This document shows positions 3,602 through 48,200 of a stretch of 64,000 bases of DNA, in pieces. The stretch lies in NCBI GenBank assembly GCA_010015585.1, contig ML975158.1. One strand, 5' to 3'. Source of the stretch: Eremomyces bilateralis CBS 781.70 (lineage: Eukaryota). The position numbers were made by a program, and so were the translations under genes. Numbering within the stretch: the first letter of the stretch is position 1; every line of letters starts with the position of its first letter. Under the pieces are notes generated by a model that saw only the letters and a program-made list of their open reading frames with translations, had not been told where the DNA came from and searched no databases.

Positions 3602-3831
3602 AGATCGTAACCTGGATTTTGCCCGTTGCGCTTGCCTCCAGAACAACTGCACCTTCCCAATTACGTTTTCGTCTCTCACACCTGCAAATCCTCCTCCAAC
3701 TCATATTAAATCTTTTCATAGCAATCAGCTCAATAAGACGTACCAATCGACACCAATATCGAAGTTAGAAACGTTGCCTTCGTCGAGCACGTGGTGGGTC
3801 AGTGAAGATTTCCCACTTCGGACCGGTTGCG

Positions 3832-6800
3832 ATGCAAAGCAGCGTTGCCTCACCACCACCAGAGAGCAACGCCCATCATCAACATCTTGTGCACACCAAC
3901 GGCCACCACGACGTGCATCCTGAGCTGGACCAGCAGCTTCAGAATGGCACACCGGAAGAAATCAAGAAGGAAAATGTTCCAAACGGCCTGAATCATGGCT
4001 CCTCTCTCCCTCCCGCCCTTCCATTAGACCAGTCCGAACCTCCCTCGAAGAGACGCAGGCTTGACTCCCAGAGACTGTCGCGTCCGCCATCACCACCGTG
4101 GAAGAAGGTTGCTGCAGAGGGGCCCAGCTCATTTCTAATCGATGGCAGACGGAAATCATCACGTACTAATACTGTCCCTTCTGAACCCGAACCGCCTTCT
4201 GGTAAACGACGCACCCGCGCCGAATCCAACACTTCCGTCACTCGACCAAGCTATGCCGCTCTACACAATGGGAAGCACTACGAGGCACCCACAAATGGCG
4301 CGATGTCCAGCCCCAAATCCACACCTCGACCCCCTCCAAACAAAGCTACTGGTCAAACCGAGTTCAAGAAACCAAAAGCCATGCTGCCAAACGGAGACAG
4401 GGCGCGAGGTGGAAAACACTCATCCTCTGCAGCAAACACATCACCCTCGAAGCCATCCGCCCAGACACACCCACGTCGAACCTCATCCTCTCGATCGAAC
4501 ATACAAGACCCGTCAACGAATACGCCTCCGTCACAAGGGTCAGCGCGCGGACGTGGTCGGGGCGGTCGCCCTCGAAAATCAGATATAATCTCTCGCGTTG
4601 GCCCCTCAGACTCACCTTCCGAACCCACCGCCCCATCCTCGGCTGGTCCTGCACGATTACGTCTACGTATACGAAATGCAAATCAACCCGAGCTGCGGCA
4701 TCTCGGGACGCTCCCACCGCTGCGGAAATATAACACATTCCAAGAATGGCTATCGCATGATGACCCTTTCCAAGGTGACGAAGAAAGTAGGCCTTCGGTG
4801 GACAAAATCACATCGAAAGCAGACGAAATCATACGCCTGCAGAAAGCGTGCGGACCTGGTGGACCCCTAGAACACAAGGAGAACCTGTTCGATGCATTTG
4901 AAGAGGAGCAAGCGGGCCTGAAAGACCCATATCAAGCTTATGGAGCAGTATACAGCCATTGGGACCATGTCGTTGCACACGCCACTCATTTCCGCCGACT
5001 CATGCGAAGAGAAGCCCGTGCACATGTTGGTATGGCCAAGCGTATCGCCAATGAAGTTGCTGAGGAGGTCGCAACGAACCCGAAATGGGAGAGCAGGCGG
5101 TTGCCGGTGGATAAGAACGAGGTGTGGCGCCAAGAGGAGGCATGGCAGCGGCAGCGGTACAAGCAGGTCGTCCGGGATATGGCGAAGGCGTGGGAACTGG
5201 TCCGGGCGGAGGTCAAGAAAGAGAAGCTGCGGCAGTGGGAGATGGAGCAGCATGCGGAAGGAAAGAGAGCTCTGGATGATATGCTGGACAAGGCGAAGGT
5301 CTTAGTCGAGAAGCGAAGAAGGAGGAGCGAAGGCGCGGGAAGCGATGTAATGGATGAGAGCGACATGGACGACGACGAAGCCGAAGTCGAATATTTCGAT
5401 GAAAACGAGCCTTTGATCGATAGCCAAATGCAGTCTGATAACGAAAAGGAGGACACAGAAAGGGTGGGATCAGATGAGGATGAAGACGAAGACCTGGATT
5501 CTGATGTCATGTCTTCTACGGATGACAGCGAAGAAGAAGTTCAACAAGACGCGGACGACGACGCGGGTCTGGACCAGGAAGCCTTGCGTCAAAAGTATTC
5601 GCACATACTTCAGGAGCAAGAAAGACTTGCCAACGGTGTGGAGGAGGCGGATGAAGACCATGCCTCAGAAACTGGCACGGATGCAGATCAATCTGCAGCG
5701 GACATGGACGAGGAAGATCTCGAGCCTGATGCTGTCCCTGGCGCCGAAGATCATACTCCAGACTCGGCGGAAGCCGATAGAGATTCCGACAAATCCAATG
5801 GCATCGACGTATCTGCGATCGAGCTGGACGAAGTCGATCCTATGCTTCTTGACGATGAAGACGAATCAACCGACATGGATAGCGATATGGGCACAGAAGA
5901 ATCCGAAGAGGAAGAAAGCGGTAGCGAAGAGGATGAAGAAGAGGGGCCAAGCCTACTGGGATTCTTCTCTAAATCTAAGATCCAGCAAATGAAAGAGCAA
6001 GCGAAAGAGCATCTGGCTAACGGAGTTGATCACGATGATGAAGATTCCGCTTCTGTCCGTCATGACGAGGTCGAGATCGACGAGAAGCCTCACGACTCCG
6101 CAATGGATTCAATTACCGACCTTGCCGAGACAGATCCTGCGAAAGACGAATTGCTTCATAATGGACACGCCAGGGATAGTTCGATGGTCGATGATGATGA
6201 GATTGAAGAAATCGAACGCAAAGATCTGCCAGATACTACCATTAAGGATGTCTCTCGACCTTCTTCGATGGAACCCCAGACCCTCAACCAACCAAGCGTC
6301 CACACGGAGATTCCGTCCCTGCTACTTCGAGGTACTCTTCGGGAATATCAGCACCAGGGTCTTGATTGGCTTGCCGGGTTGTACTCGCAGAACACGAATG
6401 GAATTCTCGCAGATGAGATGGGTCTTGGCAAAACGATTCAGACGATTTCACTCCTAGCTCATCTAGCAGTACATCACCATGTCTGGGGTCCACATCTGAT
6501 CGTCGTGCCAACGTCTGTCATGCTGAACTGGGAGATGGAGTTCAAGAAATGGTGTCCTGGATTCAAGATTTTGACCTATTACGGCACTCAAGAGCAGCGC
6601 AAGAAGAAGCGGCAAGGCTGGATGAACGAGGATCTTTGGAATGTGGTCATTACCAGCTACCAACTGATCCTGCAAGATGCACAGGCGTTCAAGAAGCGGA
6701 ATTGGCACTATCTGGTGCTCGATGAAGCGCACAATATCAAGAACTTTCAGACACAACGGTGGCAGACACTCCTGACGTTCAAGACGCGTGCAAGGCTTCT

Positions 6801-8925
6801 TCTGACAGGAACCCCGTTGCAGAACAACCTTAGCGAGCTTTGGTCCTTGCTTTTCTTCCTCATGCCCGGCGGTATCGATGGCCAGGGAGGATTTGCAGAG
6901 CTTGAGAAGTTCACGAACGCCATGCGAAGACCGGCCGATCAGATCCTTGACCAAGGTCGGCAAAAGCTCGATCTTGAAGCGCAAGCCGCCGTGAACAAGC
7001 TACACGAAGTGCTCCGACCATACCTCCTCCGCCGACTGAAAGCGGATGTCGAAAAACAAATGCCCGGCAAATACGAGCACGTCGTCTACTGCCGACTTTC
7101 CAAAAGACAACGTCAGCTATATGACGAGTTCATGGGGCGGACAGATACGCGCAGAATACTTACCAGTGGAAACTACATGAGCATCATCAATTGCTTGATG
7201 AGCTTGAGAAAGGTCTGCAATCACCCCGATTTGTTCGAAACCAGACAGATTGTTACCAGCTTTGCTCTTCCGAAGTCAGTCATCGCCGACTTTGAGATTA
7301 AAGACCTGCTAGTCCGTCGCCGGTTGCTTGCCGACGGGTCTTCGGATAAGGTTGATCTTGACTTTATTGGCCTTCGTCCCGTCTCTGACGAAAGGATAAC
7401 TACGGCCAACGCCCTGAGAACTCAATATCTCCAAGCAAGTCGGCAACTGGATTTCTATGCATCCAAACTGAGTCATGTGCTACAAGGTCGTAAAAACGTC
7501 GGCGTCTCGACGCTTGAATCGAACCTTGAAGAGATCAAATTTAAGGAGCAGCTTGGAGTGATGGAGCAACTTCGAACGACTGCAAGAATCACACGGGCAA
7601 GAACACTCAAACGGCCAATCTATGGGCTGGGGCTTGTGGAACTGGCAACGTTACGTCACACGAAAGGAGTGTATCCACGCCTCGGTCGAAGCATTGGTGC
7701 TGTCAGAGAAGTGGTATCAGATCTGCCTGAAGATGTCTCTCTCCCTTCCACGCCGGCATTTTCGGAAATGTTCTGCTCTCTCGAAGAGCGATCACGGAGC
7801 ATGGAGATGACGGTGGCCAAGTTCGGCTGCATCACGCCTGCAGTTTATGCGAGCGACATGGCCGAGCTCTCCTTGTCCCCGGGTCTGATCAAATATGCTC
7901 GAGCATATGGACAGCAACAACATAATCCTCTCCACGAGGCGCAAGTGCGACTGTCGATTGCATTCCCGGATAAACGACTCTTGCAGTACGATTGCGGCAA
8001 GCTGCAACGACTCGACAAACTCCTCCGACAGCTCCAAGCTGGCGGTCATCGCGCCCTTATCTTCACTCAAATGACGAAAGTCCTCGACATCCTTGAATCG
8101 TTCCTCAACATCCACGGTCATCGCTACCTCCGCCTTGATGGCGCCACGAAGATCGAACAGCGCCAAATCCTCACCGAACGCTTCAACAATGACCCCCGAA
8201 TCCTCTGCTTCATCCTTAGTTCTCGGTCAGGTGGCCTCGGCATCAACCTCACTGGCGCCGACACTGTCATCTTCTACGACCTCGATTGGAATCCCGCAAT
8301 GGACAAGCAATGCCAGGACCGCTGCCACCGCATCGGCCAGACCCGCGACGTGCACATCTACCGATTTGTCTCCGAATACACCATCGAAGCCAACATCCTC
8401 CGAAAGAGCAACCAGAAACGTCTTCTCGACGACATCATCATCCAAAAGGGTGAATTCACCACCGACTACTTCAACCGCGTCACGTACCGAGATGCGCTAC
8501 CCGACCTCGGAGACGATGCCGAAGCCTCCGCCGCAATGGACAAAGTCCTGGGTGACGTCACCGGCCTCGGCCAAGTCTTCGAATCCGTTGAAGATCGCGA
8601 AGACGCGGTCGCAGCGAAGACCGCCACGAACGAAATGCAGCACATCGACGCGGCCGACTTCAACGAGATGGCGGCCGTCAGCACCTCCTCTGGGAACGGC
8701 ACGCCGAAAACGTCGGTGCCGCCCACCCCTGCTGACGGGATGGACGACTCTCGCACCGTCACGGTCCATCCAGAGACGATCGTCGAGGAGGTCCCGCACG
8801 TAGACGACTATATGATGCAGCTGATGCGCGAAGAGTTGAAGCATCTGATTGTGGTGCCACCGGGGCGGGATAAGAAAAAGAAGAAGGGGAACCCGGGAGG
8901 AGATCATCGGCGGCGGAGGAGGTAG
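3832..8925 (+). CDS. SWR1: SWR1 chromatin-remodelling ATPase (H2A.Z deposition)
   Basis: One uninterrupted ORF (first ATG 3832) with an HSA-like helical region and a long acidic tract. SNF2 motifs GILADEMGLGKTIQ, LDEAHNIKN and LLLTGTPLQN; split ATPase with a long insertion; FPDKRLLQYDCGKLQ and DWNPAMDKQCQDRCHRIGQ. Confidence 0.97.
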   Translation: MQSSVASPPPESNAHHQHLVHTNGHHDVHPELDQQLQNGTPEEIKKENVPNGLNHGSSLPPALPLDQSEPPSKRRRLDSQRLSRPPSPPWKKVAAEGPSSFLIDGRRKSSRTNTVPSEPEPPSGKRRTRAESNTSVTRPSYAALHNGKHYEAPTNGAMSSPKSTPRPPPNKATGQTEFKKPKAMLPNGDRARGGKHSSSAANTSPSKPSAQTHPRRTSSSRSNIQDPSTNTPPSQGSARGRGRGGRPRKSDIISRVGPSDSPSEPTAPSSAGPARLRLRIRNANQPELRHLGTLPPLRKYNTFQEWLSHDDPFQGDEESRPSVDKITSKADEIIRLQKACGPGGPLEHKENLFDAFEEEQAGLKDPYQAYGAVYSHWDHVVAHATHFRRLMRREARAHVGMAKRIANEVAEEVATNPKWESRRLPVDKNEVWRQEEAWQRQRYKQVVRDMAKAWELVRAEVKKEKLRQWEMEQHAEGKRALDDMLDKAKVLVEKRRRRSEGAGSDVMDESDMDDDEAEVEYFDENEPLIDSQMQSDNEKEDTERVGSDEDEDEDLDSDVMSSTDDSEEEVQQDADDDAGLDQEALRQKYSHILQEQERLANGVEEADEDHASETGTDADQSAADMDEEDLEPDAVPGAEDHTPDSAEADRDSDKSNGIDVSAIELDEVDPMLLDDEDESTDMDSDMGTEESEEEESGSEEDEEEGPSLLGFFSKSKIQQMKEQAKEHLANGVDHDDEDSASVRHDEVEIDEKPHDSAMDSITDLAETDPAKDELLHNGHARDSSMVDDDEIEEIERKDLPDTTIKDVSRPSSMEPQTLNQPSVHTEIPSLLLRGTLREYQHQGLDWLAGLYSQNTNGILADEMGLGKTIQTISLLAHLAVHHHVWGPHLIVVPTSVMLNWEMEFKKWCPGFKILTYYGTQEQRKKKRQGWMNEDLWNVVITSYQLILQDAQAFKKRNWHYLVLDEAHNIKNFQTQRWQTLLTFKTRARLLLTGTPLQNNLSELWSLLFFLMPGGIDGQGGFAELEKFTNAMRRPADQILDQGRQKLDLEAQAAVNKLHEVLRPYLLRRLKADVEKQMPGKYEHVVYCRLSKRQRQLYDEFMGRTDTRRILTSGNYMSIINCLMSLRKVCNHPDLFETRQIVTSFALPKSVIADFEIKDLLVRRRLLADGSSDKVDLDFIGLRPVSDERITTANALRTQYLQASRQLDFYASKLSHVLQGRKNVGVSTLESNLEEIKFKEQLGVMEQLRTTARITRARTLKRPIYGLGLVELATLRHTKGVYPRLGRSIGAVREVVSDLPEDVSLPSTPAFSEMFCSLEERSRSMEMTVAKFGCITPAVYASDMAELSLSPGLIKYARAYGQQQHNPLHEAQVRLSIAFPDKRLLQYDCGKLQRLDKLLRQLQAGGHRALIFTQMTKVLDILESFLNIHGHRYLRLDGATKIEQRQILTERFNNDPRILCFILSSRSGGLGINLTGADTVIFYDLDWNPAMDKQCQDRCHRIGQTRDVHIYRFVSEYTIEANILRKSNQKRLLDDIIIQKGEFTTDYFNRVTYRDALPDLGDDAEASAAMDKVLGDVTGLGQVFESVEDREDAVAAKTATNEMQHIDAADFNEMAAVSTSSGNGTPKTSVPPTPADGMDDSRTVTVHPETIVEEVPHVDDYMMQLMREELKHLIVVPPGRDKKKKKGNPGGDHRRRRR

Positions 8926-9320: not shown

Positions 9321-9664
9321 CTATAACCCCAGTGCGTCACGTAAATCCTGATATGCTTGGTCAGTAGTTGTATTTACTATGTAATGGAGGGATTGCTTGC
9401 CATTAACTTCTTCAGCTTCTCCTGAGTTGAACCTGGATCGGATTTGCTGAGGCCTAGCTTGGCTAACTGGAGCTTATGTGTCTGTTGTTGCCGAATGTAC
9501 TATGGGTAAGCGCACTGGTTAGTGGAGCATTATTGCCGTATGATCCAATTTCTCACCTCTTCAACGGTGTCTTGCATAATGTATCGAATAATTGTAACTC
9601 TCTTGTCCTGGCCCATACGCAAAACACGGCCGATTGATTGGCATTCTACCGTGGGATTCCAATG
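9321..9664 (-). pseudogene. 3' remnant of a Rad5/Rad16-type SNF2 helicase gene
   Basis: HWNPTVECQSIGRVLRMGQDKRVTIIRYIMQDTVEE (helicase motif VI), then intron 9556-9500 (GTGAGA..CTAAC..TAG), then YIRQQQTHKLQLAKLG. Everything upstream of HWNP is missing. Confidence 0.75.
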
Positions 9665-9667
9665 CGA

Positions 9668-12085
9668 CACTGGTAGAACCTTCGCCTTCAGGGGTGGAAA
9701 GTGACAGTGACGAGGGTCCTGCAGACGATGCGTACCCCCCTGACTCGGAAATGAGCCGATTAATAGGCCGGGGAAGAGACAGCTTTTGGGAAGTGATGTG
9801 AACCGGTCTCTTTGGTGCACCTACGGTTCCTTGATCAGCTCCTTTCAAGGCCAATTTCCTACCCCCAAAGCCGGCTAGGTAGCCATATCCATCTTCTCGA
9901 AGTTTGACTCCATAAAGATTCCGACGATTGGAGATGAGGAGTGCAAAAACGTAGAGCTCAGTTCCCCTGAAGAGGGTACCGTTTGGTTTCACGAATTGTG
10001 CACCGATAACGAGTGCTGTCCTGGATGTATGCGTGTAATGAAGGTCCGGAGAAACCTGCCCGTTGATGCTAACCCTGTAAGTCCTCAAGTGGTGGATATT
10101 CTGGAACGAATCATCCATCTCACTGTGTCGAAGGATTTGCCCATTGTCGAGAACACGTTCATGACTCCAATTCACCTTGCCCTGAAAGGGGACACCGGGA
10201 GTTGGGGTTTCAGTGTAGTCGATATCGAACTTGACGAACTCACCCGTCGTGAGTGCATTCTTGCCTGGTGGTGTGGCTCTCTCGCCCCGCTCATGCCAAT
10301 CTGCCACGTCTGCTGCCGCCGCAATCGTCGCCGCAGTGGCCGAAGCCGCAAACAAGCCTGCTGCAATACCATTGCTGGTTGACAGAGAAATCCCAGCATT
10401 AGTGCAACAGGAGACGGAAGGGTCATTTTCCTCGAAAGTCCCTTCAGGTCCAGACGAAGCTTCATCTCCATCTGAAACGGCGACAATGGCGCCGGCAACA
10501 GCCAAAATCGTCGCGACAACCCACCCCACGACTTTCGACCAAGGATAATCAAAGGCAAAGGACCATGAGTGCCACGGTACACAGGTGAAGGAATGAGAAG
10601 CAGAGTCCCAGATTTGACGAAGATGGAAAAATGTACGTATTCACCAATAGCAGGATCTTTGCCTGTGTTGTCACCTCCGGAGCCGCTACAGCAGCAGCAG
10701 CAATTGCCATTGCCATGGGTGCCATCATGATCACCGCCGATAGGTGGAGGTCTCGGTGTGATGGCACGATCGACGTGGACATACAGCGAGCCTTGAGGTA
10801 CTCTAACCTCAAATGATTTGGTCGGCTTGTTGAAGCTTAGCCCTAGGACGAAGATCTTTTTCAGCACCCGGATAAAAGTTCTCTCAGAACCTGAGTGCTG
10901 TTGGATGATGAAGGATATGACCGTCTCTCCAGGCGTTGCTCTCTTGAAATCGGCATCAAAGATTTATTTGAAGGAGGCTTGAGTGAGAACAGTCCCATTC
11001 AAAGGCCGATTGATTAACAGAGGAGCGACGATATTTGGATCGGCGATGCCTTCCTCATAGATAGAAATGCCGCTCAAATCGGCTCCTCCATCGTTGCGGG
11101 TCTCCACATTGATCAGTTGATTGCCGATGTTTGACACAAATAAACCATCGGGATTCATCATTCCATTTGCCGGATTCGTCGCGTAGGGCCGGAACGGGAT
11201 ACCGGCTGGAATAGCAAGCGTACTTGCTGTAATAGTAGCAAGAGCAGGGCGGGCACTCCCTACGACCACGATGGCTACACCAACCAACAATGCGACCGTT
11301 CTCGTCATGTTGCTCAACCAGAACGACGGCAGCAGATTGGTCACGGTCCTTTTCCGGGAACTTGACAAGCGCGTGGAATCGCTCGGAGTCATTCGGACGC
11401 AGATTTTTCAATTCGACTTTAGTTTTCCCTCCTTTCGGGGCGGGAGCACCGAGCACCTAATCGGTAACCAATGCTGACTCGGTTGCTTTGGTTGCATTGT
11501 TGCATTTCGGAACTCCCAACATTTTGAGTGTCGGTGCAAAGAGCTCCTCAGGCGCGGGCCCGATAGAGAGTTTAGCTGTAGTATTAGGGAAAAGCCAGCC
11601 GCTGCCATTGGTCTTAATAAGGAAAATTGCCTGGGGGGATCGAAAACAATGTCAACATTTCGCTGAGCAACATGACGATTGTGTATGTCCCATCCAGTGT
11701 TAGGATGCGGTTGTACCGCATCATTCGTGGCGGATGCTTCGCAAATGATACATTCATGGCTGTTGTTGATCCATTGAGGGACCCAAGCGCCGACACAGAG
11801 GACTAGTTTGGTCTCGCCGCTCTCCAATGAAAAATCACTCGTTCCTACGAGCTGAGAGTTGTTCGGTGTTGGCACTATAGCGGGATTTCATATCCAAAAT
11901 TTGATAGTCGCTCCTTGCGTTCGCGATCTTCCAGCGTTCTTGATGGATGCAAGGATGTAGATGGGTACATTCCTGGTGGGAATAGCTGGACTTGGGTCAT
12001 CCGGGGTGTTGTGCAGAACGATATTTGGGTTGAAATAGAGTGGAAAAGGTGCAGAGCTTCGGCCGTCAAAGCGTAGTTCGGCCAT
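9668..12085 (-). pseudogene. Intronless, disrupted ~800-codon gene of bacterial-like character (beta-rich N-module plus membrane-segment C-module), function unknown
   Basis: Consecutive ORF-track pieces (12085-11888, 11875-, 11456-, 11392-, 10867-, 10529-) join into one protein. The joins are stops at 11890-11888, 11459-11457 and 10966-10964, and single-base frameshifts near 11590, 11283 and 10552. No splice signals are needed. The 3' boundary is approximate. Confidence 0.75.
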
Positions 12086-24698: not shown

Positions 24699-26561
24699 TC
24701 AGAGTCTGTTGGACATTCCATCATACGCATCCTCCTCATCCTTGATCGGTGGGTGCAACCCCAACCCCCCTCTTGCATGTGTGCTTCGGGGGTCCCATTC
24801 CAGCCTCTGCGGAGATTGTGGACCGCCGCTGCTCGGTGGTCGAGGGCTCGAAAAGCTCATGCTCGGCGTATGGTACTGTCGCTGACTGGACTGGAAATAA
24901 TCCGGGGTTTGCCTGCCATTCATCCCAGGGCTCTGATACACCTCGGTGGGGCTGGTGATTGTCGATACGGGCGACTTCACCTTCAGTAACTCATACTGTC
25001 GCGCGTCGTTTGAGTATCGCTTTGCATCCAGCGATACGAATTCGCTCTTTTGCACGAATAGCTTGCGGAAGAAGTCGTACCAGGCGCGAAGTAAGCTGAA
25101 TCGGGATAGGAGTAGGAAAACTTGGATGCCTGCGAGACCGAGTAACATCAAGATGGCTGTGACGACGGGTTGGCTGATCAGGAACCGCTGAGCATCGGCA
25201 AAACACTCCTCCTTTCTCCCTCCGGAGATTAAAAGACAGGTGAGCCAAGGCATGAGTTGGTCTCTTTTGGTCGTAAAAGCGTGGTCGGTGATATCGTTGA
25301 GGTAGATGAAGACGACGGAGAGGAAGATGACGTCGGCAAGGATGAAGATAACCATCAATATGGCACGCCATTGAAGCCAGAGAACCTTTGTGACACGGCG
25401 GTAGACCCCGCGGGCGGTCTGGTTGCGATGGGCTGAGCCAGAGTAGGAGGCGAGTCCGCCGCTGGAACTCGTCTCTGTCTTCTCGTCACTGAACATGTTC
25501 TTGATGTAGACGTGAATGCAATAACCGAAAGTCGCGATTTGCAATAACGCGCTTGCACCTGCCATCCCAAGCATGGGGCCCCAGAAATCTTTCGTCGAAT
25601 GCTCCGAGTTGACGTGACATGCATCGCCGAATCGGAAACTGACACCGGTGAACTAGCGATACGAAGGGGGTTAGCGAGTCCTTCGCGCACGGAATAGTGC
25701 CGATTATGGGCAAGCATCAAGAAGACATACCACCAACGTGAGCACAAAAAACAACGATACCAGGCCCCATCCCAGGGCTTGAGAACCATAGAAGAACTTC
25801 TTGCCAGGAACGACGTCCCAGCAGATTTGTAGGTGCATGGAGAGAGTTCGAATGAAAACTATGTCATCAATGTCAGCGTCTACGCCGTCCGAGGGTTTTC
25901 GCGCGATGGTCAGACTTACTCCACATGCCTGTGGTGAGGCTGCCAGAAATAATGAATGCGCCAGACCACGCGCAAGTCATACTTGAGTACATGTCATTCG
26001 GTGTAATTTCGTTGAAGCACTGTTCAGGCTGCGCGGCAAGGGGCACGACGAAACCAAGCTGCAGGAAATCAATTGACTGGTTCCTCTGTGAAAAAAAAGC
26101 ACATTACATACCTCCAGTAGTCCAATGCCAATAACGAGACAGACACTGAGATAATGTCGCCTTGATTTCTCGGCAGGAAGAGCGGCATATGAGATGAGGA
26201 GGAACAAGGAAACCGCGACACTGAGCGCACTAAGGACTTCTGTCGCCCTGCTCCACGAGTGGAAGTCTTGGGATCGTAGTCAACATCTTGCATTGAGGAT
26301 TTGAAATGAGCTGCTTACTTTCTGGGAATATCCAGTCTGTTGCGGGGCACGGTAGACAGCATGTTAATCCATCGCCCAAGGAAGAACAAAAACGGCCCGG
26401 AGTATCTGGGCGATGTTAGTTAGGATCCAGAAACGGATCGTCAGTACCGGATGGGAATATGGAGACCACATACATCCATCACTTGGGGGGAACTGCTTGA
26501 CGTCCAGGAACGGCATAGGACAGAGTCCTCTCAGCTCCTCTATCGATCGATTTGAGAACAT
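24699..26561 (-). CDS. gprM: Seven-TM G-protein-coupled receptor, GprM/MG00532-like class
   Basis: Multi-exon. Cys-rich N-terminus (CPMPF, CLPCP..DW), LPAEKSRRHYLS, CFNEITPNDM, MHLQICW, GVSFRFGDACH, LQWR; seven hydrophobic segments and a Ser/Pro-rich tail. Confidence 0.8.
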
Positions 26562-29500
26562 TGTGAAAGGTTCGACGCGCTGTCAACACAGTGGATGAAT
26601 GATCAGGTTGAGAGATGTTGGCTGAGGAGTAGCACAGTGACCGAAGTGGTCGTGAAGCCTGCCCAAGGCGATATATCGCGTCTATAACAAGCGCATCGAC
26701 TAGTCCCGTCCAGGCAATATGGAATCCGAAAGTCTTCGTTGGGCCCTACACGGACTGGATGGGGAAGTCGCCGTTCAATTGACGCTCAGGCGGTTTCAAT
26801 TCGAATGAGTGAGGAGTGGAAAATGTTTGATGTGGAGGGTAGGGCAGTAAAGAATGATCTCTAAAACCAAAATTCCGAGACGGGACTCATGCAAGAAAGA
26901 AACGCCAATCGACAGGGCGTTGCAGAAGGGTGACAGACCGGCGGCGCGACACGACCGTCAGCATGCAGGACCAGTCGACCAGGTACAGGACTGCCTGGTA
27001 TTCCAAGGGAATAATCGGATACAATCTGTGTGCGTCAAGGCGTTGGCGGCTGAGGGGAAAGACTCAAATGAGGGGAGTGGAGACGAGATGAGCAAGTCCG
27101 GTCCTGGGTATCCGTGACAAGCGAAGGCCCAAATAGTGAGGTGGGAGAATATATGTATTGGTACCAATGCTGTAAGAACTTAAAATGTTCGCGCACAGCC
27201 CGGATGCTGGTGACCGACGGGGATGGTAGAAAATGAAGCACGCCGGTCAGGAGATGAATGACTGGAGAACCATGCAAATCCTGGAAGGAAAATAACAAAT
27301 TCTTTATCCGGCTGGCGATCAATACTGCTGGGGACTTGGGAGGGGGGCAAAGTAAGGTAGGACGAAAGAGGTAAGGTAGAGTGTCAGTTGTCGGTATGGA
27401 CTATCAAGTATGGAGTATCGTGAAAGAATGCCCTGACGATGACGCCTAAACACGACGATGAACTAAAAGAAAGTCAACGTTTAAGAACAGGACGTGCATC
27501 GTAGATCGTTATTATTCAATCTCCTTTTAGAACCTCATGAAAAGAAGGGGGATCCAAGAGAGCGGAGCAACGCGACCTGAGGGGCAAGATTGGTAGCAAT
27601 ATGAGGATGGTATGGTTCAAGGGCTTAAGGCACGTCCGATGTCTATCCATAATTGTCGATTGTTAGTACCTCAGTCGATCCCCACGGTACGTCAGAATTT
27701 TAAGCCACCAAAGACATGCTCACCAGTCCCAGGTCTACATCCCGATCGCGAACCCGATGGGAGTGTCGCTTCATTTCCTGTAGGTCAGTATTATCGGTAG
27801 CTTGTACCATAACTGGCTGAATTTGCACCCGAAAGCACCTTTCACTCGCCAATCCGCAAACACTCCAAGTCCCCAGACTCAGGCACTCTGCGCGAAAGTC
27901 AATAACATCCCATCCTCGGAATTGGGTTGGATGAGTGTTGGACCGGAGGGAATTGGCTCTGCAGCCTATGGAACGTCATCCCTTAGCTGGAGGGGTAAAG
28001 GGGCGTTCGCCGAATCCGCTCCACTTGGCGTCGGCGTCAAATACTCTTCAGGGCTGGAGGCCTGGAACTCCCTGTGACTCTGCCAGGGTTCCTCGCTCAA
28101 CGGGGCAAAGTCAACGAAGATTCTCGGCTGTGGGTCCAGAACATGCCCCAACGTGCAGGCTGCGCTTCGGCTTTGGCTGGTCAATTAGCAAGGATGAAAG
28201 ACTGGCGCCATGTGCCGATGTGAAGAGCTGTCGCGTGGCGGGGGGTGTCGACGAGTGAGCGACGAGATGTGGGCGAGACTCTGGGGGCACAGGATCGTAT
28301 CATTAGCAGGCAACATTGGTTTCGTTCCTCCGCTGGAGAGTGGAGGGGGACACCGATTCGACGATGCTGGCTTGGATCGCTGGTTCGATGTGGTGTTACG
28401 ACTGTACCTCAGGACTCTCGCGAGTCACGACACTCCAGCAATCCATACTCCACAAACAGAGGGCAGCTGGTTCGGAGTGGAACAGGTGGGCTGGGTACAT
28501 GCTCACTTCATGGAGACTTGGTTCCCCACCAGTAAGGGTTGGTGTTGCATCTCATCGCCATCCTGGTGGAAATTTGACGACATGTGGAAAACTTGGCTAA
28601 CAATCTAAGTTACAGGTGATTGCAAGAGAGAATGCTTTTTCTAGTGTTCGCATGGCAAATACTTCCGGAGCCGGCCTGCATCATCTCCGTAGAAAAGCAT
28701 GCATCCTGATGACAGGTGGCTGGTACATACAGAATACTGTCAGGCACCCGAACTCTCGAGTCTCATGTTTCCCTTGCTGTAAACTGTAAAGATCTGCTTA
28801 CGGTGGTCTGTGTACTTCAGATGCAGGGTAAGACAGGTAAGTTTGCTAACTGGCTAATGCACTAAGAGAGCCTTTAGGTTTTAGTTCAACCGGATTGTGA
28901 GCTTCCTTGATTTTCTCACGTGGAGTGGCTGCGGGACCTTCGCATCATTTGATCGGATCTATCTCGATTCTCGTATCCATCAAGGGCCAAGGCTTCCGTT
29001 GTACATCTTTTCTTCCACGCTGTCATGGGCCTCGATGGGTATTCTAAATTCTTCCATCGGGAAGCTATTAATACTGGTAGTACTTACCCTAGGCGCCATA
29101 CAATATTCATTGAATGCGAATGTAATACGGAGTACGGAATATGGAATTCGGCTTTCGAGGACTGGTTTTCCAGCGCGCTGATATTGTCCTCAGTCATTTC
29201 GTTTGCGAGTTATGTATGTCCTCAACCTTTCGGTCAGTTAGGATGAACTCTTTAAGTCTTTAATTTTTTTGCCTTCAGAATTGGGCCTCCAACCGTTCTT
29301 CCGCACCGTACCGTGTACGTCGCCCGGCGCCCAAAATCAGAATGCCTTCGGCCCCCAATTACTGGCCAAGAAGCCCGGAGTGGGAGATTGGCAGTCCAGA
29401 CGCGTCGGCGCTTAATGCCACTCCAAAGAAGGTGACATATTTTCTCGCGCCAGCCTCTCACGATTCGTGACAATCTTACGGGAGAGTCACTGGTCGTTCA

Positions 29501-32500
29501 ACAGTCCAACCTCCAGCGAATGATGCGCCACAGTTCGATTGTCCTGCTCGGCTCTCGCGAATAATCCTTTCCTTTAATGGGTACGGGCGGACCTGGATAC
29601 AATTATTCCGTTGATACCTGAGGCGGTCCCAGAACTCTAATGCTTGTGCGAGTTTCCCGGTCTTAGTATTGGGTACAAATATCTTCTCCAAGAGGCAAGG
29701 GCAAACCTGTCGATTGGCTCTCATAATATCCATATATTTTCGTTGTGCACGAGTTATAGTCACTACATAATATTATCCCCACGCCCGTGGTATGCCTTAT
29801 GACTGGTTCTGGAGAACCCGACAATATTAATGCTCCTCGTCCAACTCCCGGGCCACTGGCCTTGTTGCAGCTGTGCAATTGCCAGGTACGGACGTATCGT
29901 GCTGTTCAATCATGCTTACGGAGATCCTTGGGTTTTACTCAGAGCTAGGTATTCACTATTAATTATTATCAACCCTAAGATCCCGGTGTTAGTCCGGGGT
30001 ATCCCTTTCAGCAGTTGAAAGTCAAAGGTCCCTAATATTTGAATTTAGGATCTGAAGTGCGCTGTGGTAACCGTAAGGAACATCGACGCTGCAGTAGAGG
30101 CATCTGAATTCTAATATATTGACCAGTGGAACTGGGAGTTCGCCAGCACTGGCCACAGAGACCGAGAACCAGGTTTCGAGATGTTGGAAATAGGAAATTT
30201 ATTCACAGCGACACTACTGTTGCGTCAGTTTAGATAGGGGCCGGAATGCAGATCCCTTTAGTCGAAATTACTTGCCCATAAAGATTAAAGTTCCCATGTC
30301 CCAACTCCTAACGATATTACGATCGTCTTGGCTTGTAGCTATGATTAGATCGAATCATCGAAATCATTGGTAAACACATAGCAAATGCCATTCACAATTT
30401 ACGTGCGATAGTACCTATCAAAAGGACATCATGGTTTGATTTCAGCCCCTAACTTACCCATTCTGAGTTCTCCGCACTTATTTACCATAGGCAGGTTATC
30501 AGACACCGGTCGAGACAGTTCTGTACAGTCTATGCTTGGGGCCTGCACAATGGTGTACATAATAGTACTTAATACATGGTAGTATATTGGAGCTCCCACT
30601 TGTGAATCGTTCTATGCGTGTTCCTGCATCCATTGTCGAGGAACAGACGAATAGGCAGACGATCCAGCGCGGGATTGTATATGCCCATGGGCCATTCCCA
30701 CATATTCACCCCCTTTCCCTACCAAAGCTGGAGAATTATCCATACTGTACCAGGATTCAGGCTAAAGAAGGTATCGGTAATTAAAGCTTACTGTAAGCAC
30801 ACTAATGGATTAACAGAACTCTTTGATAATCTGGACACGTGCGGAGAATTAAGAATCCCATGTTGCTACTGTCGATGGTGTAGATCCATAGGTATTTGCT
30901 TTCCAAATTCCAACCCATGTCACTCGTGGAAAAAGGAGTATCGCACTTTGCTGACATCTCAGTTCTCATAAGGGGCAAGCTGGCAAAGGCTCATCGTGCA
31001 TTGGGGACTATGTATCCGAATTCCGAACTAAGTTGCGCTGAGGATAGAGACGCCACGCGAATTGTTTCACAGGCACTGGCTCGAGGGCTGGATATGTTCA
31101 GATTCCAGCCTCGTCTTGTAGCTGTTGATGAGCACGATCCAGATCTGTTCAAATGGCAGGAATCTGGTGACACGTTGAACGTGCTGGATCAGTGAAGAGT
31201 TCGGATTTGCCGCCGTGCGACATCGCCTCCTTGTGGTACATTATACATGCGTATCGCTGAGTCTCGAACGGCATTGTGCTTAGATTATAATCACTGTGAT
31301 GTTTTGCCGCCGTCGATCTTTTAGAGTCGGTAACTGCTCGTGGCGAGAACTGTTCCTAGCGTGTCCTGCCTACAGCGGCATTTCTGTTGGTTGTCTCCCA
31401 TCTTCAGATTTCCTGCACGTCTGATCACATCGCCAAGTGGACGAGAACAGAGTTGTGCTTCGTTGCGCCCGACTGAGGCCGCCTGGGACACTACACGATG
31501 TAACATTGTCTGAAGATCACCTAGGGATGACCATGGTAAGACCTCGGTGAACTGCATAGGGGTTGGCCATAATGAAAACGGGGAGAACCCACTCGGTAAC
31601 GGGGACGATATTAACATCAAACAGATCGGCAGGGGCCAACAGTTCTGGACAGTTAACTCTATCCGACTTGTGACCCGTGTGTGGTGTGTTCCTTGAGAGT
31701 TGAGACCTGGTCTGACACCATGCCTTCATTTTGGAACAGAGAGGTATTATCAGAAGGATAATCATAAGATTTACATTATCCGAACTCTACATATGACACA
31801 TAGAAACATACCTACCTTCCACCAGACTCGCCATGCCAGGCCACCCATGAAAATACTAGAATAATACCAGGGGGCGTACGTATCAGCACCCAACGTATCC
31901 CAGTATTACCGTGACATCACCCGTACGGGAGCTGGCATTGCACGCCCTTTGGACTATTTCACGTCCCGTCCGGGGTGATTTTCTAGCCTGTGCAACTTCC
32001 GGAGTTCCTCCACACTCTCGGGCATCTTCTGGGGCGAACTTGTGCTATCATTTCGTTTTCCATTTCGAGCGTTGCTCTTTAATCGGTGAATGTCACGGTA
32101 GCGTCAAGCCTATCCATGGATGGAGGGTGATGGACGCCGTCGCCGTAGATATCTGCATCAATGTAGAGATGACAACGGAGGATAGAGAACACAACGAGCG
32201 GGTAGTTTGCATCGAGCTGGTGTGCAATACCGCACAATGGAGAGGCTAATCTTTACTTACCTGTGCTTGGATATTCCCTTATTGTAGCGTAGCTTAGGGC
32301 TGACGAGCGACTGGAACGACTGATAGGAAGGGGTGTTGTGACGGGTGAAGAGAGACTGAAGCCTCAGACAGAAAAAGGAGAGAACATGCACACGTGGGCG
32401 GATGGAGACGGGACGGGACGACGGGCGACGCGACGGCACGCGTGGAGAACCGAACAGTTTACTCTTTGAAACCCCGTAATACTTGGTGTTAGACCTAAAG

Positions 32501-33242
32501 AAGACGATCTGGCAAGGCATCGGCAACATGTCCTCAGACTTCTCTCAGCTGATTCTACAATTCTTCCCACGCCGCGGTAGTAAATGATAGAGAAACATCA
32601 CCCCTTACATCAAGCCAACCAGAAATCCAATTAGATACACAGGATCCTCAACCGAATGTTATTCAGCGGTATATATATACGCAACTCTCACCCTCCAATC
32701 CGACCCCTCTTCTCCTTCCCAATCATCACTACTATACAAACAAACGCTATGTACATCTCCCCCACCGTTAAGGACGACGGCAAAACCCGCCACTGGGGAG
32801 CGCGTGGCTCGACTCCGTATATGGCGAGTGGGATATATCAAACAAGCCATCCGTATCCCTCCCTATCAAATTACGCATTACTCCTTCCCTTGCCCCGAAA
32901 AGCCCTCTCCAATGCAACAGTGACTGGTGGAGGGGCAAGGTGACGTAGGGCTGATAAATAAGTCCCCAACTTCACGACCATCGCGTTGATCTGCGTGCGT
33001 CGAGGAGCGGGAAAATTGACAAAGGAAATAGAACGCCGGGAAGATGCTTGCTGGGGATCCTGCGTCCTCGACCGGAGATCCGCAGTGAGAATGATATCAA
33101 ACCGAAATATCGAATCCGAAATTGAACGGAGAACGGAAGGCACGGAGATATTGTCCATATGGCCGAGATCGACCCAACCCGACCTAACCACCGGGTCGAC
33201 CGCACCATGCATATAAAACCCAAGGATGATGTATCTCGAACC

Positions 33243-39545: not shown

Positions 39546-41485
39546 GATGGAAGAGGCGAAAGAATAAGACTCATCAAGTCCAGATGACCTTTGTGAACTA
39601 TACTGCAGCTTAATTCTGGACTCCGCTTTGGACAGGTTGTTCCTTCAGTCGGATGGATCCCAGAGAATACCCAGCGCTATATCACCATGGAGTCACGTAG
39701 AGAAAGACCTGAAACCAAGCCTCTCGCAAGCGTGTCGAATTTGCAACCCCATATGGCTTCCCGCTATCCACGAGAATGGGGGCGCAGCCATGCAACTAGA
39801 CAGGAAGCTCCGGATTACAACGTTGTACGTTCGCGGGCGACAGTCTGACTTTGTCGATGCGCTGGGCCTCTACGTTCACGGCGAGCAGACCAACGTATTG
39901 CATTGGCTAGTTCCTATCGATCCACGGCCAGGGCCGGCGGCTAGAGGGAAAATCACTGATCGAGAGCGAGCGGACCTCAAGTTCGCTCAAAATTGTTTTA
40001 GGTTTTGCCGAGAATATCACGCGAAGACGTGTGGGATGGTACCGCAATGGGTTCGAGGGCTAAAGCTGATTGATTGCAAGACCAGGCAGATTTCAAAGGA
40101 GACATCGAACTATCCGTATGTCGCCCTGAGCTATTTATGGGGCAGCCGGACTCCAGCACCACCAAATGTGCACGATGGAATCCTGAAAGAAGTGCCAAAA
40201 GTCATTGAAGACGCGATGACGGTGGCTTCCTCGCTTGGTATTTCATTCTTGTGGGTGGATAAGTATTGCATTGACCAAGCCAACGAAAAGGAACGGTGTC
40301 ATATGATCCAAAACATGGACTGGATCTATGAAGGTGCAGAGTGACCATTTCGCAGCGGCGGGATCCAGTCTGGACTTTGGGTTAGTCGGTGTGTCCAGTA
40401 CCTCGCGTGAACCTCATCGCATATGCAAGTGGGATCGCATACTCTTGTGTCCTTCTCGCACCCCGGTTTGGAACTCCTCTCTTTGAAATGGTCGTCTAGA
40501 GGCTAGACATACCAAGAAGGCCTGCTTTCCAGGCGACGGCTGGTATTCTCCGAGTCTCAGGCGTATTTTCAGTGCTATCAGACACATGGCGCTGAGGCGC
40601 TCGAGCTCCCTCTTCAGGAATGACATGCGACTGACGTCCGGAATGTTCGTTCATTGAGCATATTTCCCGAGAACGGAATCGGGAAAGGAGGTTATGATAT
40701 ATATCGACGCCTGGACGATTATTGCGGTACAGAGTTCACGTTCCAAAGCGACAGTCTCAACGCCTTCCTCGGGATTTTCAACGCTCTTCGGACACGAGAG
40801 CCTTGCGTGTTTCACTTCTGGGGCGTTCGCATCTTCAGGATGTCACGTACTCCAATGAAAAACTAGGGGTTCATCGCATCGCTAGCTTGGGGCGCCGACA
40901 GGGGTGTTAAGCGGCGAGGATGTAACCTGCCATCATGGTCATGGGCTGCGTATAAATGCAGCTAGATATATATCCCGCGCCGAGGATATTGGAACGGTTT
41001 CGACGAATCTACCACGGTGATGGTGACGAAGTTGTCAAGGGGCGCAGCTAGACATCGCGGCCTACGTTAGGGCCATCTATACTAGGGATACTTTCACTGA
41101 TTATCACCTCTGGCTTGATATGACTGGTTAGGTGACTACTTGTCAATTTCACCGCTCAAACAATGTGCTAGTGGTTGGTTACGACGGGGTTTGTTTCCGG
41201 ATCGACCTAAGGGAGGCAGGAAACGTCCTGTTGTTCTCGGGCGAAGAAAGAGTTGAGGGCCAGGACAGTGGCGATAACGAAGATGCTTTGAATCTCATTT
41301 TTTTGGGACGTCAAACTAATTACGGCAAACGGCTGGTCTTTCTCATGCTCCAGACCCAAGGCTCGAATGACTACACTCGCGTCAGCAAATTGGAGGTGAT
41401 ATCTCCGATTGGCGATCTAGATGAGAGCGGCATCTTCGAACACATGAGAACTCATTAGAAAAACCGAACCATTCGGCTCATTTAA
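39546..41485 (+). pseudogene. HET-domain (heterokaryon incompatibility, PF06985-type) pseudogene
   Basis: LIDC, YVALSYLWG, PKVIEDAM, LWVDKYCIDQ, IQNMDWIY. Frameshift at GAE/VTI (~40340); RG*TYQEGLLSRRRL with TAG at 40504; LPSWSWA; further stops; ends RTIRLI*. The start is approximate. Confidence 0.88.
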
Positions 41486-45297: not shown

Positions 45298-48200
45298 TCA
45301 CTCTTTGAATGCGCCCGGCACCTCCTTCGGCGTCATCGGCCTACTCGCTCCCGCAGTCGCATAACCCCTCGCCGACTCCCGATAGCTCGCCATGAAGATC
45401 TTCTCAAACGATGGCGGCGGTTTCCAGCCATGAATCATGCACGCCCGGCGGTACGCCTCCACCGCCTCCCCCGCCGAATAGTCCCCCACCGTGCCATGCA
45501 GCCTCGCCGGTCGCGGCTCCAGACTCATGATCGCCATGCGCACCTGCAGCAGGATGCTCTCGATCGAGTTCGCACTGGACCAACCGGACTGAGTGAGAAG
45601 CTCCATGCAAATCGCTCCGCCGGCCGTGACGTGTCCGCCGCCGCCTTGAGCGAAGGGGAGGAAGCGGGGGCGGATGACGCGGATGAAGGGCGGAGAGAAG
45701 GGGTAGTCTTCCGCAAAGCGCATCTCGAGGACGATGCTTTGGATATCCCATTTCTTCATGTCATGGGCGAGCGGGAGCGCGAGCGGGAAGGAATGGAGTT
45801 CCACGATCCATTGGTAAAGGTTGAAGTCGTCATCGCGGAGGTCTTCGGAGACGGTCCAACCCAGTGCGTGATGTACGGTGAGCTTTTGGAGATCCACAGT
45901 TTCCCTGAGATCACGCATGAGGGATTTGGAAGCGGAGGGAGTCGCGTATTCCGGAGGTACGATGAGAGGCAGGTCTTTCGCGTTGAGCTTTCCTGGCTCG
46001 TATCGCATCATATCCTCAGGTTGATCAATCCCAGCGACTACTTGATCCTCATTCTCGGACGCTTCTGAGTCCTCTTCCCATTGGGTTCTGGCATATCTAG
46101 AGTTACCATTCTTCTGTTTCTTGCCTGCGGAGGTCCCTGGAGAGCTTGTACGGATGAACTTCTCTGCTCTATGGACGGCAGAATATGGAATGACGACCCT
46201 GGCTATCTCCCCTGCTGGTGTCCTCAGAGGGTCTTGCTCGAACACCTGGTCCGGGGACTTTTCTATTCCATTGGCCGTGAAACCGGGTATATTGCCCACG
46301 CCACGAACGAAAAGGTACCGTGTCTGAATCCAGTCCACATGCTGTACCACAAGATGTGGACTTGAAGAAACAAACTCCTGTGGTGCATTGACAATTTGGT
46401 TCAGTGACATGGCAGATCGGATGTGTAGCGCACTTCTCGTCCAGCTGGGCGAATTAAACTTTGGACCATCCACGTGGGACCTATGCACGTTCGCATACGT
46501 TTGGCTAACATTAAAATCCAGAGAGTGGTAACAACCATCCCCATAGGCTCGGCCATTGACAACGGAATTATAATGCAGACCTTCCCGAATGATGCTGTGC
46601 CAATTCTCCACAGGGCTGCCATGCCAGGCGAAGAAGGTCTTGTGATTCAATTGCAATCGCTCCGAAACCTTTTCCACCTGGTCTAGGAAACGCTGCTCTT
46701 TGTCTGGAGCACCCATTGCAAACCGGAACTGAAGCCACCCAGGCATCCCGAGGAGCCGTTCTTCGTTCTCACCTCCTTTCTTTTCTTCACCGCCAATGAG
46801 ATTATCGACTTGGAAGATGCAGGCACGGCAGGAAACAATGATCCAGCGCAAAATCTGGATCGAGGCCGGTGGAAGCCTGTTGGTCCACTGTGCAATAGTG
46901 GATCGTGATTCTAGAAGATGTTTGCGCATTTCCAAGACTGGGGGTATGAGGTCCATCATCCGCAATAGGCTGAGTCGTTTGTAATGTTCCGGAATATCGT
47001 CGAAGTTATGGTCGTATAACGCGAATTTGACTTTGAGCGGGTTGCAACCCTTGGATGTCCCAGTCTCTCGCGCGTTCGATCTTCTGGGATCTATAACAAC
47101 CGGGTCATTTTCGGTTCCGAGAGGGCCTGAGAGGGGAATAATCGGGTCATTCTCGATTATAGGAGGTTCCGCGAGTTGAACACGATTTGGGTCAGCAACG
47201 TTCACAACCCGACAGTGACGAACGAACTCTCCTCTTCCCTGGATACAGAGGACAATCCAGTGATTTTCCTTCAGACGGTTCGAATCCTTTGGCTCCAGGC
47301 TCAATGTCCATGATGCCAGGTCGAGTTTCGCTTCGTATGGCATTTTCTTCCGCCAATCATGCATCTGTTCCGTACCTCTCTCATAAGTCTGCGGGTTTGG
47401 GACACGGAGATTGAGGCCCGAGGGGAAGTCTTGCAATTTGTTATAGAGAGCCCTGGAGTAGCAGAAGCTAATCAACAGGTCGACAACGAATGGTTGCTTG
47501 ACGATCTCCTCCTCAATACTGGGACCGAATCCGAACTGTAGGTACTGGTAGAGACAGAGTGGCGCATCGCAGACATAGGGTTTGATTGCTTCCAGCTCGG
47601 TGTTAAGAGTCTTCCAACAAATCATGCAGTGGCTGGTGCAGAGGACCAAGTGTCGAACCAGGCATTGCATGACGAGAAGAGGGAGGGACAGCTGCGATTT
47701 TGGTGAGCTTAGGTGGTCCCTAAGGATGATCGCAGGAAGATGTTTCTCTGAAAGGTCCAGAGGCGGTGTTTCGTGCAGCGAATCTGCCAGGGTGTGGTAG
47801 TCGAGTGACTGACCGACGGGTGCGGTTGAGAGGAGGTTATATCCATGTTGGGCGAGATCCCAGCTGCATGGAAACCCGCAATTTTGACGGACAGAGACAA
47901 GGGTGAAGAGCCTGGTTCGGAGCATTTCTTCAATCGGCTTGGAGATGAAGCAATTCCGAATGATACGAGCCGGGTCGTCTCCAGCCTTGGCAGCCGTTGC
48001 CGAAAAGACGTTGATGATTTCCTCATCGTCGGGTTTGTATCGCTTGCAAAGACCCACGCGCAGGTCAAACACGTGTGATCGCTGCTGGGTAGACAGACGC
48101 GAAAGATCCTCGAAGGCTCGGTAACCCGACGGGAAATACAAGAGCAAGACTAAATACTCTGAGCGATGGAGGTTCCAGGCTACCATGGCTTCGTCGGATA

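Follow-up and report, generated by a model that had tools for sequence, protein, structure and literature searches.

The fused gene and its breaks

The 64,000 nucleotides analysed here, called the window throughout, are a stretch of contig ML975158.1 in the genome assembly of the fungus Eremomyces bilateralis CBS 781.70 (GCA_010015585.1), and they hold on the minus strand the remains of a gene composed of two modules, the equivalents of two bacterial genes that we call A and B. We consider it very probable, taking identity and origin together, that this copy is a broken, still-transcribed relic of a fused fungal gene encoding about 800 amino acids (aa). Open reading frames (ORFs) were taken from stop to stop on the minus strand and read against the DNA and against intact relatives. 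Six such fragments, from position 12085 to about 9560, join into a single gene spread over two frames: frame A spans 12085 to ~11590 and then ~11282 to 10554, and frame B spans ~11588 to ~11282 and then 10553 to 9564. Three in-frame stops and three single-nucleotide frameshifts leave it with no uninterrupted ORF; the frameshifts, located by comparison with the relatives P0006 and P0003, all fall within short runs of T, G or C. An earlier reading of this DNA, made without database searches (the sequence-only reading), had joined the same six fragments into one frame with three stops and three 1-nt shifts, and the ORFs, the sequence and tblastn all agree with it.

Four intact relatives (P0003, P0006, P0004 and P0010) cover positions 12085-9867 in tblastn with E values of 1e-105 to 5e-180, which is far beyond chance, and find no other match within the window. 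According to the profile match, family homology stops at ~9884 and the tail of 9883-9564 is unrelated sequence. The final 80 of the 794 positions of the fungal profile have no counterpart (89 of 504 in the bacterial profile), and nothing matches past fungal position 714, the sole trace being a 25-residue tblastn hit with an E value of 7.6. The lost C-terminal end, WYVFVFAQDVN...PCEL (W-Y-x-F-V-x-A-Q-D-V-N ... A-A-x-T-I-G-G ... P-C-x-L), is strongly conserved in the family. The window copy is a pseudogene and cannot make the family protein.

The signatures of both modules can still be followed along the relic. Module 1 keeps the His and Cys of S-H-E-C and the Gln and Asn of HVAQRN, four residues that are invariant in both alignments, while the invariant Gly of G-H-E-C has drifted to Ser. 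The signatures of module 2 are found all in order: IP-x-S-x-P-F/Y-R-P-Y ... M-x-P-D-G-I/L-F, K-K-I-F-V, and a degenerate LPF-x-DPWWK, in which the invariant DPWWK has become DYPWSK and is split by frameshift 3; the hydrophobic hairpin with its CC loop and SD-x-AD ... RGQ-x-x-T-P-P are present as well. On the Kyte-Doolittle scale, averaged over 19 residues, the two hydrophobic segments reach 2.57 and 1.73. The motifs quoted in the sequence-only reading are therefore real family signatures, and the two hydrophobic segments, the CC loop and the CCCCC run that it had pointed to are present by hydropathy and sequence, the hairpin being real. The positions of all these elements are collected in Table 1.

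Table 1. Elements of the fused A-B pseudogene and of its 3' tail, in window positions.
Feature	Position	Strand	Basis
Pseudogene of the fused A-B gene, family-homologous part, ~735 codons	9884..12085	-	tblastn of four relatives and profile end
Original start codon ATG (MAELRF...), same as in intact relatives	12083..12085	-	alignment with relatives
Module 1, equivalent of bacterial gene A: CARDB-like and second Ig-like sandwich	11201..12085	-	
Stop 1, TGA; relatives have Cys	11888..11890	-	
H-E-C motif; His and Cys invariant in family	11750..11758	-	
HVAQRN motif; Gln and Asn invariant in family	11657..11674	-	
Frameshift 1, 1 nt, in ggcttttccc, frame A to B	~11587..11593	-	
Stop 2, TAG; P0006 has Tyr	11457..11459	-	
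Frameshift 2, 1 nt, in ggttggtg, frame B to A	~11279..11284	-	
Module 2, equivalent of bacterial gene B; begins IPFRPY, C-terminally truncated	9884..11200	-	
Stop 3, TAA; relatives have Ser	10964..10966	-	
Five Cys codons (CCCCC), variable Cys-rich loop also in bacterial B proteins	10688..10702	-	
Frameshift 3, 1 nt, in cctttgat, frame A to B, within family motif LPF-DPWWK	~10551..10553	-	
Hydrophobic helix 1 (VVGWVVATILAVAGAIVAV)	10476..10532	-	hydropathy and model
Hydrophobic helix 2 (IAAGLFAASATAATIAAAA); acidic CC loop separates helices 1 and 2	10311..10367	-	hydropathy and model
Tail of the last open frame including stop codon, without family homology	9561..9883	-	
57-nt intron, GTGAGA...ACTAAC...TAG, spliced out in X3 contig	9500..9556	-	

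Repeat-induced point mutation (RIP) was considered as the cause of the decay and rejected: the indices are normal (TpA/ApT 0.49, (CpA+TpG)/(ApC+GpT) 1.33), and none of the three stops is a C-to-T or G-to-A product.

Read support and transcription

Logan contigs of three sequencing runs could be compared with the locus. Runs X1 and X2 belong to one sample, possibly the source of this DNA, and X3 to a different sample and study. X1 and X2 each provide one contig across 9400-12300 and two X3 contigs cover the entire stretch, in all cases with no differences. Since the contigs of two studies are identical, the breaks are not errors of one assembly, and the frameshifts and contiguity for which the sequence-only reading had wanted confirmation hold in three runs from two studies. 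One X3 contig joins 9557 to 9499 and skips 57 nt with the ends CT..AC on the plus strand and GT..AG on the minus strand, which is a canonical fungal intron; X3 thus holds spliced minus-strand RNA, and the locus is transcribed. Within 12085-9884 the X3 contigs have no joint, and this homologous part is intron-free and colinear with the intact proteins. The earlier claim that the gene lacks introns stands for that part and fails for the non-homologous 3' tail, where the only intron (9500-9556) is spliced out in X3.

The X3 contigs fork at ~9400-9429 into two alternative continuations. Their depth shifts from 12 to 26 near 11760 (11755-11766), and the upstream contig extends about 950 nt past 12300. 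The transcript structure across the pseudogene may be complex or read-through.

The protein family and its fungal members

Queried with the largest in-frame piece, HMMER picked out 127 proteins (E<=1e-3) among 1.84 billion representatives. By length they fall into two kinds: long relatives of ~786-963 aa, which match via their C-terminal half, and relatives of ~500 aa, which match from residue 1. A search with a profile (A1) built from eight long forms brought in 39 proteins, namely 18 fused (693-963 aa), 19 unfused (496-539 aa) and 2 others. Seven of the 18 fused proteins are named and all come from Pezizomycotina (Lignoscripta, Fusarium oxysporum, Elaphomyces, Dactylellina, Westerdykella, Dactylella and Zopfia); two of the 19 unfused ones are named, both from Plantactinospora. 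Cluster look-ups added Penicillium canescens, Fusarium oxysporum f. sp. melonis and F. nygamai to the fused holders, and among the unfused B relatives they include the green alga [Myrmecia] bisecta (598 aa) and a Thorarchaeota metagenome-assembled genome (MAG). The fused form, apparently patchy in its spread, is known from about ten named species in five Pezizomycotina classes, a count of presences among named sequences.

The A-B family belongs to no curated family and has no name beyond 'hypothetical protein', even if the UniRef label of one fungal member reads 'CARDB domain-containing'. No Pfam, NCBIfam or PADLOC model reaches its threshold on any family member scanned. Pfam and NCBIfam return nothing meaningful for the six window fragments, PADLOC-DB 2.0 (2023 library) no family for nine proteins at E<=1, and a sequence search of the PDB nothing significant. 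In the ESM Atlas there is no usable match for the window fragment, and P0165, a B protein, leads only to clusters of 'hypothetical protein'. No paper on the family was found in the literature searched, whose coverage leaves out subscription journals and supplements. A word-index search with the N-terminus of the pseudogene found no stand-alone module 1 among 54 candidates, which reflects its sensitivity limit, because bacterial A genes were later found by profile.

The prokaryotic gene pair

The prokaryotic scan covered one genome per species for 185,579 species, and 163 of its 193 pattern hits encode a relative of module 2; 80 loci were kept. The holders belong to more than ten phyla overall, among them Actinomycetota, Alpha-, Beta- and Gammaproteobacteria, Acidobacteriota, Chloroflexota, Nitrospirota, Planctomycetota, Bacteroidota, Bacillota, Thermodesulfobacteriota, Nitrospinota and one archaeal MAG. 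In prokaryotes A (~275-290 aa) and B (~500 aa) are separate genes. A hidden Markov model (HMM) built solely from the N-terminal halves of the fungal proteins detects gene A directly upstream of B, on the same strand, in 79 of the 80 genome loci (E 1e-13 to 1e-50), the lone locus without it being a contig of 1,676 nt, and A precedes B in nine of nine metagenome loci as well. Stop and start overlap by 4 nt (A/GTGA) in 58 of the 80 loci and the spacing is -1 to +24 nt in 19 more, so that the two genes abut (-4 to +24 nt) in 77 of 79. The bacterial A proteins have no signal peptide and end just past the G-G strand; the sequence-only reading had described a module 1 that occurs alone and ends there, and for gene A this holds.

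No other neighbouring gene is conserved among 30 diverse loci compared, and the flanks of 16 scanned loci differ from one to the next and are not defence islands. At one of these 16, in a gammaproteobacterial MAG (L073:2562-4862 and 11397-11846), genes for an nSTAND3 NTPase and a phage capsid lie near the pair. The pair is present in 6 of 201 sampled genomes of one bacterial family, and phyla are intermixed in the trees. A viral contig collection held one relative among 31 pattern matches, a gene B homologue with 59% identity on an IMG/VR contig (L090, 6001-7503). The A-B pair is a self-contained accessory module, scattered widely but sparsely.

Two bacterial MAG loci hold broken, frame-shifted or ambiguous copies of the pair (L013:6927-9521 and L069:7139-9470). 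The apparent A-B fusion of L013 was considered and not accepted as genuine, since the latter half of A is encoded in a different frame, probably through a frameshift in the MAG.

In the prokaryotic subclade that is sister to the fungal proteins in the trees described below, a gene for a Zn-dependent phospholipase-C (PLC)-like protein of ~740 aa stands directly upstream of A in seven of nine loci (L081-L085, L087 and L089; e.g. L084:2883-5105). Its product matches PF00882 with 32-49 bits, above the cut-off, and has in addition a hydrophobic stretch. With A and B it makes up a unit of three genes. This gene occurs in none of the 80 genome loci and has no significant tblastn match in the window (best E 0.44). 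Its presence beside the pair hints at membrane lipids.

Origin of the fused gene

The tree of module 2 (IQ-TREE, short search, 67 rows, unrooted) carries as support only the Shimodaira-Hasegawa-like approximate likelihood-ratio test (SH-aLRT). In it a single clade (SH-aLRT 100) unites the window with 20 other fused rows and is sister (99) to a prokaryote-rich subclade. The 13 rows of this subclade stand for P0014-like genes from high-GC contigs of metagenomes, the Thorarchaeota MAG, P0042, P0157, P0031 and the protein of the green alga. A FastTree analysis of 113 rows agrees. In the module 1 tree (58 rows, also unrooted) 18 fused rows form one clade (100), which groups (99) with the metagenome A proteins of the sister subclade, apart from 30 other bacterial A proteins. 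These same metagenome proteins are the best prokaryotic matches to the HMM derived from fungi, with E values of 1e-63 to 1e-72. The nearest relative of the window copy is the partial protein P0006, with 63% identity over 263 columns.

Because both module trees give the same placement, the two halves would have arrived together from the same kind of donor and would have been joined afterwards. We think it highly probable, the assessment again covering identity and origin jointly, that a two-gene bacterial operon entered a lineage of filamentous ascomycetes and was then fused. That two adjacent bacterial genes had been acquired together and fused was the central proposal of the sequence-only reading, and it gains strong support from the adjacency in 79 of 80 genome loci and in all nine metagenome loci and from the concordance of the trees. 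The observations it had named as telling against the proposal (homologues spread broadly across fungi along the species tree, a lack of bacterial relatives, modules never adjacent in bacteria, reads revealing a chimeric assembly) are not what was found.

On the module 2 tree the fused state requires at least two changes, so there were either two fusions or one reversal. P0031, another fused form (803 aa, from a metagenome), falls beside the algal protein and away from the fungi, which suggests a separate capture or fusion. Under either history, the fusion indicates that A and B act together (Rosetta-stone evidence). It is natural evidence that the two work together, and both halves tell the same history.

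Several points weigh against this account. The trees are unrooted, come from short searches and are supported by SH-aLRT values alone; 11 of the 18 fused rows and the whole sister subclade are without organism names; the label of X3 as RNA is only a guess, and X3 is possibly the same strain as the source of the window. The fungal gene tree also departs from the species tree, Zopfia falling with Orbiliomycetes and Westerdykella with Fusarium, and for this reason a single old transfer followed by paralogy and loss is indistinguishable from later transfer between fungi.

Unrooted trees would allow the opposite direction, in which the family is native to Pezizomycotina and descended vertically with massive loss, prokaryotes having acquired the gene from a fungus and split it. 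The span of the fused clade over five classes fits such a history, as does the GC content of the pseudogene (0.51), which equals that of its fungal neighbours and points away from a recent arrival. We nevertheless regard it as very improbable: the split pair is found in more than ten prokaryotic phyla, with branches far deeper than the single fused clade; the 4-nt overlap is the typical layout of a bacterial operon; the fused clade lies on one side of one branch in both trees; few named fungi hold the gene; and its coding part has no intron. That the gene is intact and active, its breaks being assembly errors or sites of recoding read-through, is nearly refuted, since transcription of the locus and three frameshifts in homopolymer-like runs are outweighed by contigs of three runs and two studies that agree at every base, three different stop codons at conserved Cys, Tyr and Ser positions, altered family-invariant residues (S-H-E-C, DYPWSK) and the missing 80-90 conserved C-terminal residues.

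In our opinion, A-B is a clean example of a whole bacterial operon that very probably entered fungi and survived as a gene fusion. The relic in the window gives no precise date and has no role as a protein, so that its local interest is limited.

The host locus

The pseudogene sits between fungal genes on a single contig, so it is not contamination. The neighbouring SWR1 helicase gene (3769-8925, an ORF of 1,718 codons) has its nearest named relatives in Dothideomycetes, at 73-83% identity, the host being a dothideomycete-like ascomycete, and the other flanking genes encode cytochrome-b5-reductase-like, DUF846, citrate-lyase-beta-like, 2-hydroxyacid dehydrogenase, DUF1776 and DUF3405 proteins. 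GC is even across the region, the base composition of the pseudogene matches its flanks, and no transposon domains are found among the window ORFs scanned. The 'accessory island' in which the sequence-only reading had placed the gene finds no support: the flanks are ordinary eukaryotic genes of the same composition, with neither a RIP signature nor transposon domains seen.

Further away in the window, some other features were observed. An ORF with a HET (heterokaryon incompatibility) domain lies at 39568-40341 on the plus strand, about 27 kb from the pseudogene, and a single ORF of 1,176 codons at 45301-48828 on the minus strand encodes both a PARP catalytic domain and a ubiquitin-conjugating (UBC) domain. 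A segment of about 7 kb (25700-32900) has an ordinary GC content of 0.495 and no ORF of 180 codons, and none of its 11 scanned ORFs of at least 100 codons has a Pfam match.

Predicted structure and topology

AlphaFold2 models were built with family alignments. The model of A (276 aa) consists of two sandwiches and has a predicted local distance difference test (pLDDT) value of 90.1 and a predicted template modelling (pTM) score of 0.88. That of B (P0165; pLDDT 83.3, pTM 0.85) has sandwiches at residues 1-190, helices at 203-224, 258-278 and 285-292, and sandwiches again at 300-502. The intact system is thereby predicted to contain six immunoglobulin (Ig)-like sandwiches, the first of them CARDB-like, and a transmembrane helical hairpin. 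Hydropathy over 19 residues is 2.2-3.2 for helix 1 and 1.7-2.4 for helix 2 and supports a real transmembrane hairpin, and by the same measure there is no N-terminal signal-like segment. The CC of the hairpin loop is invariant, as is the H-x-C of A; the Cys-rich loops of B are variable (CCCKC and CRCECYCD in bacteria, CCCCC in fungi) and absent in some members.

The second domain of A most resembles folds of the pilus-chaperone and MSP types (Z ~8). The Foldseek lists for the models contain generic Ig-like proteins, with whole-model TM-scores of at most 0.29, and such matches, obtained with predicted models, indicate fold and not function. In one fused relative within the fungal clade, P0011 / P0131 (963 aa, from a metagenome), two inserted CBM5/12 chitin-binding modules separate the first sandwich of module 1 from the second.

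Possible functions of the pair

We would propose, tentatively, that the A-B pair is a mobile accessory module that acts at membranes in conflict or stress. A would be formed by two cytoplasmic Ig-like sandwiches, the first of which, CARDB-like, would bear the invariant His-x-Cys / Gln-x-Asn patch. The tight translational coupling and the repeated fusion argue for a stoichiometric A-B complex, in which A would bind B at a fixed ratio. B would be anchored in the membrane by its hairpin, which would have a pair of Ig-like sandwiches on either flank, both pairs cytoplasmic; since signal peptides are absent and the hairpin has two helices, a cytoplasmic location of all six sandwiches would be the simplest topology. 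The loop of ~35 residues with the invariant CC would then lie on the opposite side of the membrane. The His-x-Cys and Gln-x-Asn of A, on two strands of the CARDB-like domain, would be the best candidate for a ligand-binding, catalytic or cross-linking site, so that A might be the sensing or catalytic part of the pair and B its membrane part.

This proposal has to face the fact that the pair shows no tie to a known system, with no above-threshold match in Pfam, NCBIfam or PADLOC, and that the bacterial flanks are not defence islands, with nSTAND3 and capsid genes near only one of the 16 scanned loci. Against the cytoplasmic location stand the CARDB-like and macroglobulin (MG)-like folds, a sub-threshold choice-of-anchor-X motif and the CBM5/12 insertion, all of extracellular type.

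Those last features would be at home in a released binary toxin or adhesin acting on other cells, whose hairpin would insert into the target membrane and whose Ig-like domains would bind targets such as chitin-bearing surfaces. The hydrophobic helical hairpin, the extracellular-type folds and motifs (CARDB-like with Z 10.1, MG-like, choice-of-anchor X), the two CBM5/12 modules of P0011, the PLC-like gene upstream in seven of nine loci of the subclade nearest the fungal genes, and the many soil bacteria among the holders are consistent with it. We still find it rather doubtful, because A and B both lack a signal peptide, the hydrophobicity of helix 1 is extreme (up to 3.2 over 19 residues) in a three-helix model that has no solubilising bundle, no secretion genes are conserved nearby, and no toxin family was matched.

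It is also conceivable, though hardly a favoured outcome, that A-B is an undescribed mobile membrane-acting system common to bacteria, archaea, fungi and a green alga, which would combine a new reactive CARDB-like site with a hairpin-anchored effector and which eukaryotes would have captured more than once by fusion. In such a site the invariant His-Glu-Cys on one strand could face the Gln-x-Asn on another, and together they could form a catalytic dyad or an internal Cys-Gln cross-link. Internal cross-links are known from thioester and ester-bond Ig-like domains.

An unlikely role, in our view, is the handling of a metal or of a thiol-reactive compound (binding, storage or resistance), a trait of the kind that passes easily between kingdoms. 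The variable Cys-rich loops of B in bacteria and fungi, the invariant CC of the hairpin loop together with the invariant H-x-C of A, a weak resemblance in fold both to YcnI and CrdA, which are copper proteins (Z 8.4), and to a CARDB domain whose structure was determined with metal ions, and the self-contained, patchily distributed nature of the pair all point that way. The fold matches, however, are to generic Ig-like sandwiches with commonplace Z values, neither metal-resistance genes nor regulators recur as conserved neighbours, and the Cys-rich loop varies in length and is missing from some members.

For functional work, the conserved two-gene cassette offers a defined target, the bacterial pair being small, intact and present in culturable soil genera.

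Comparison with known systems

The clearest structural likeness is to CARDB (PF07705). Domain 1 of A has the same seven-strand sandwich: 3idu (Pyrococcus PF1109) matches it with Z 10.1 and a root-mean-square deviation of 2.6 over 98 residues, and 2l0d with Z 9.6. In sequence the matches are weak (E 0.045 to PF07705, E 0.011 to 2kut); the best bacterial A score is 14.4 bits, against a Pfam cut-off of 22.7, and the window fragments give no hit, so that the likeness is at the level of the fold only. In A the domain lacks a signal peptide and is coupled with a membrane partner, and, to our knowledge, the definition of CARDB does not include the invariant H-E-C and AQ-x-N patch.

The sandwiches of B resemble those of several large protein groups: the factor XIII barrel (4kty, Z 10.6), the archaeal fusexin (7p4l, Z 10.2), bacterial alpha-2-macroglobulin (4u48, Z 9.3) and A2M (7s62, Z 9.2). 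Its Foldseek list also contains complement C3b and adhesins, and there is a likeness of the HAP2/fusexin domain III type. Only single sandwiches match, whole-model TM-scores being at most 0.22, and B has no thioester domain, catalytic core or fusion loops; folds of the MG, transglutaminase and fusexin types are common and carry no functional information. In the last domain of B the motif D-D-G-x-G-x-D-x-x-A-N-D-G-x-Y matches choice-of-anchor X (NCBIfam NF041940) with E 1.5e-5 to 5.6e-3, the four matches all lying below the cut-off (16.4-24.6 against 25 bits); it covers 37 positions and lies in the region missing from the window copy.

Two-gene toxins offer another comparison. PirA and PirB of Photorhabdus form a binary toxin without signal peptides, encoded by adjacent co-expressed genes, in which one protein is an all-beta sandwich and the other consists of hydrophobic helices and sandwiches. 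The searches with A-B brought up no sequence or fold match to them, and B has a hairpin of two helices and not a helical pore-forming domain. In pore formers of the colicin and Cry types the hairpin is buried in an amphipathic bundle, whereas the B model has three helices and is otherwise all-beta; no chain of these types is among the fold matches listed for the models.

As regards its history, A-B has a precedent in fungal urea amidolyase, which was acquired by transfer from bacteria. In that protein amidase and urea carboxylase are united in a single chain with a restricted distribution in eukaryotes, so that two linked bacterial-type activities stand in one fungal protein (PMC3073912). Urea amidolyase belongs to a known enzyme pathway, whereas the A-B partners are without known activity and the copy in the window is a pseudogene. 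Interdomain transfer and fusion of linked genes are both known kinds of event, of which A-B is a new and unusually well-documented case.

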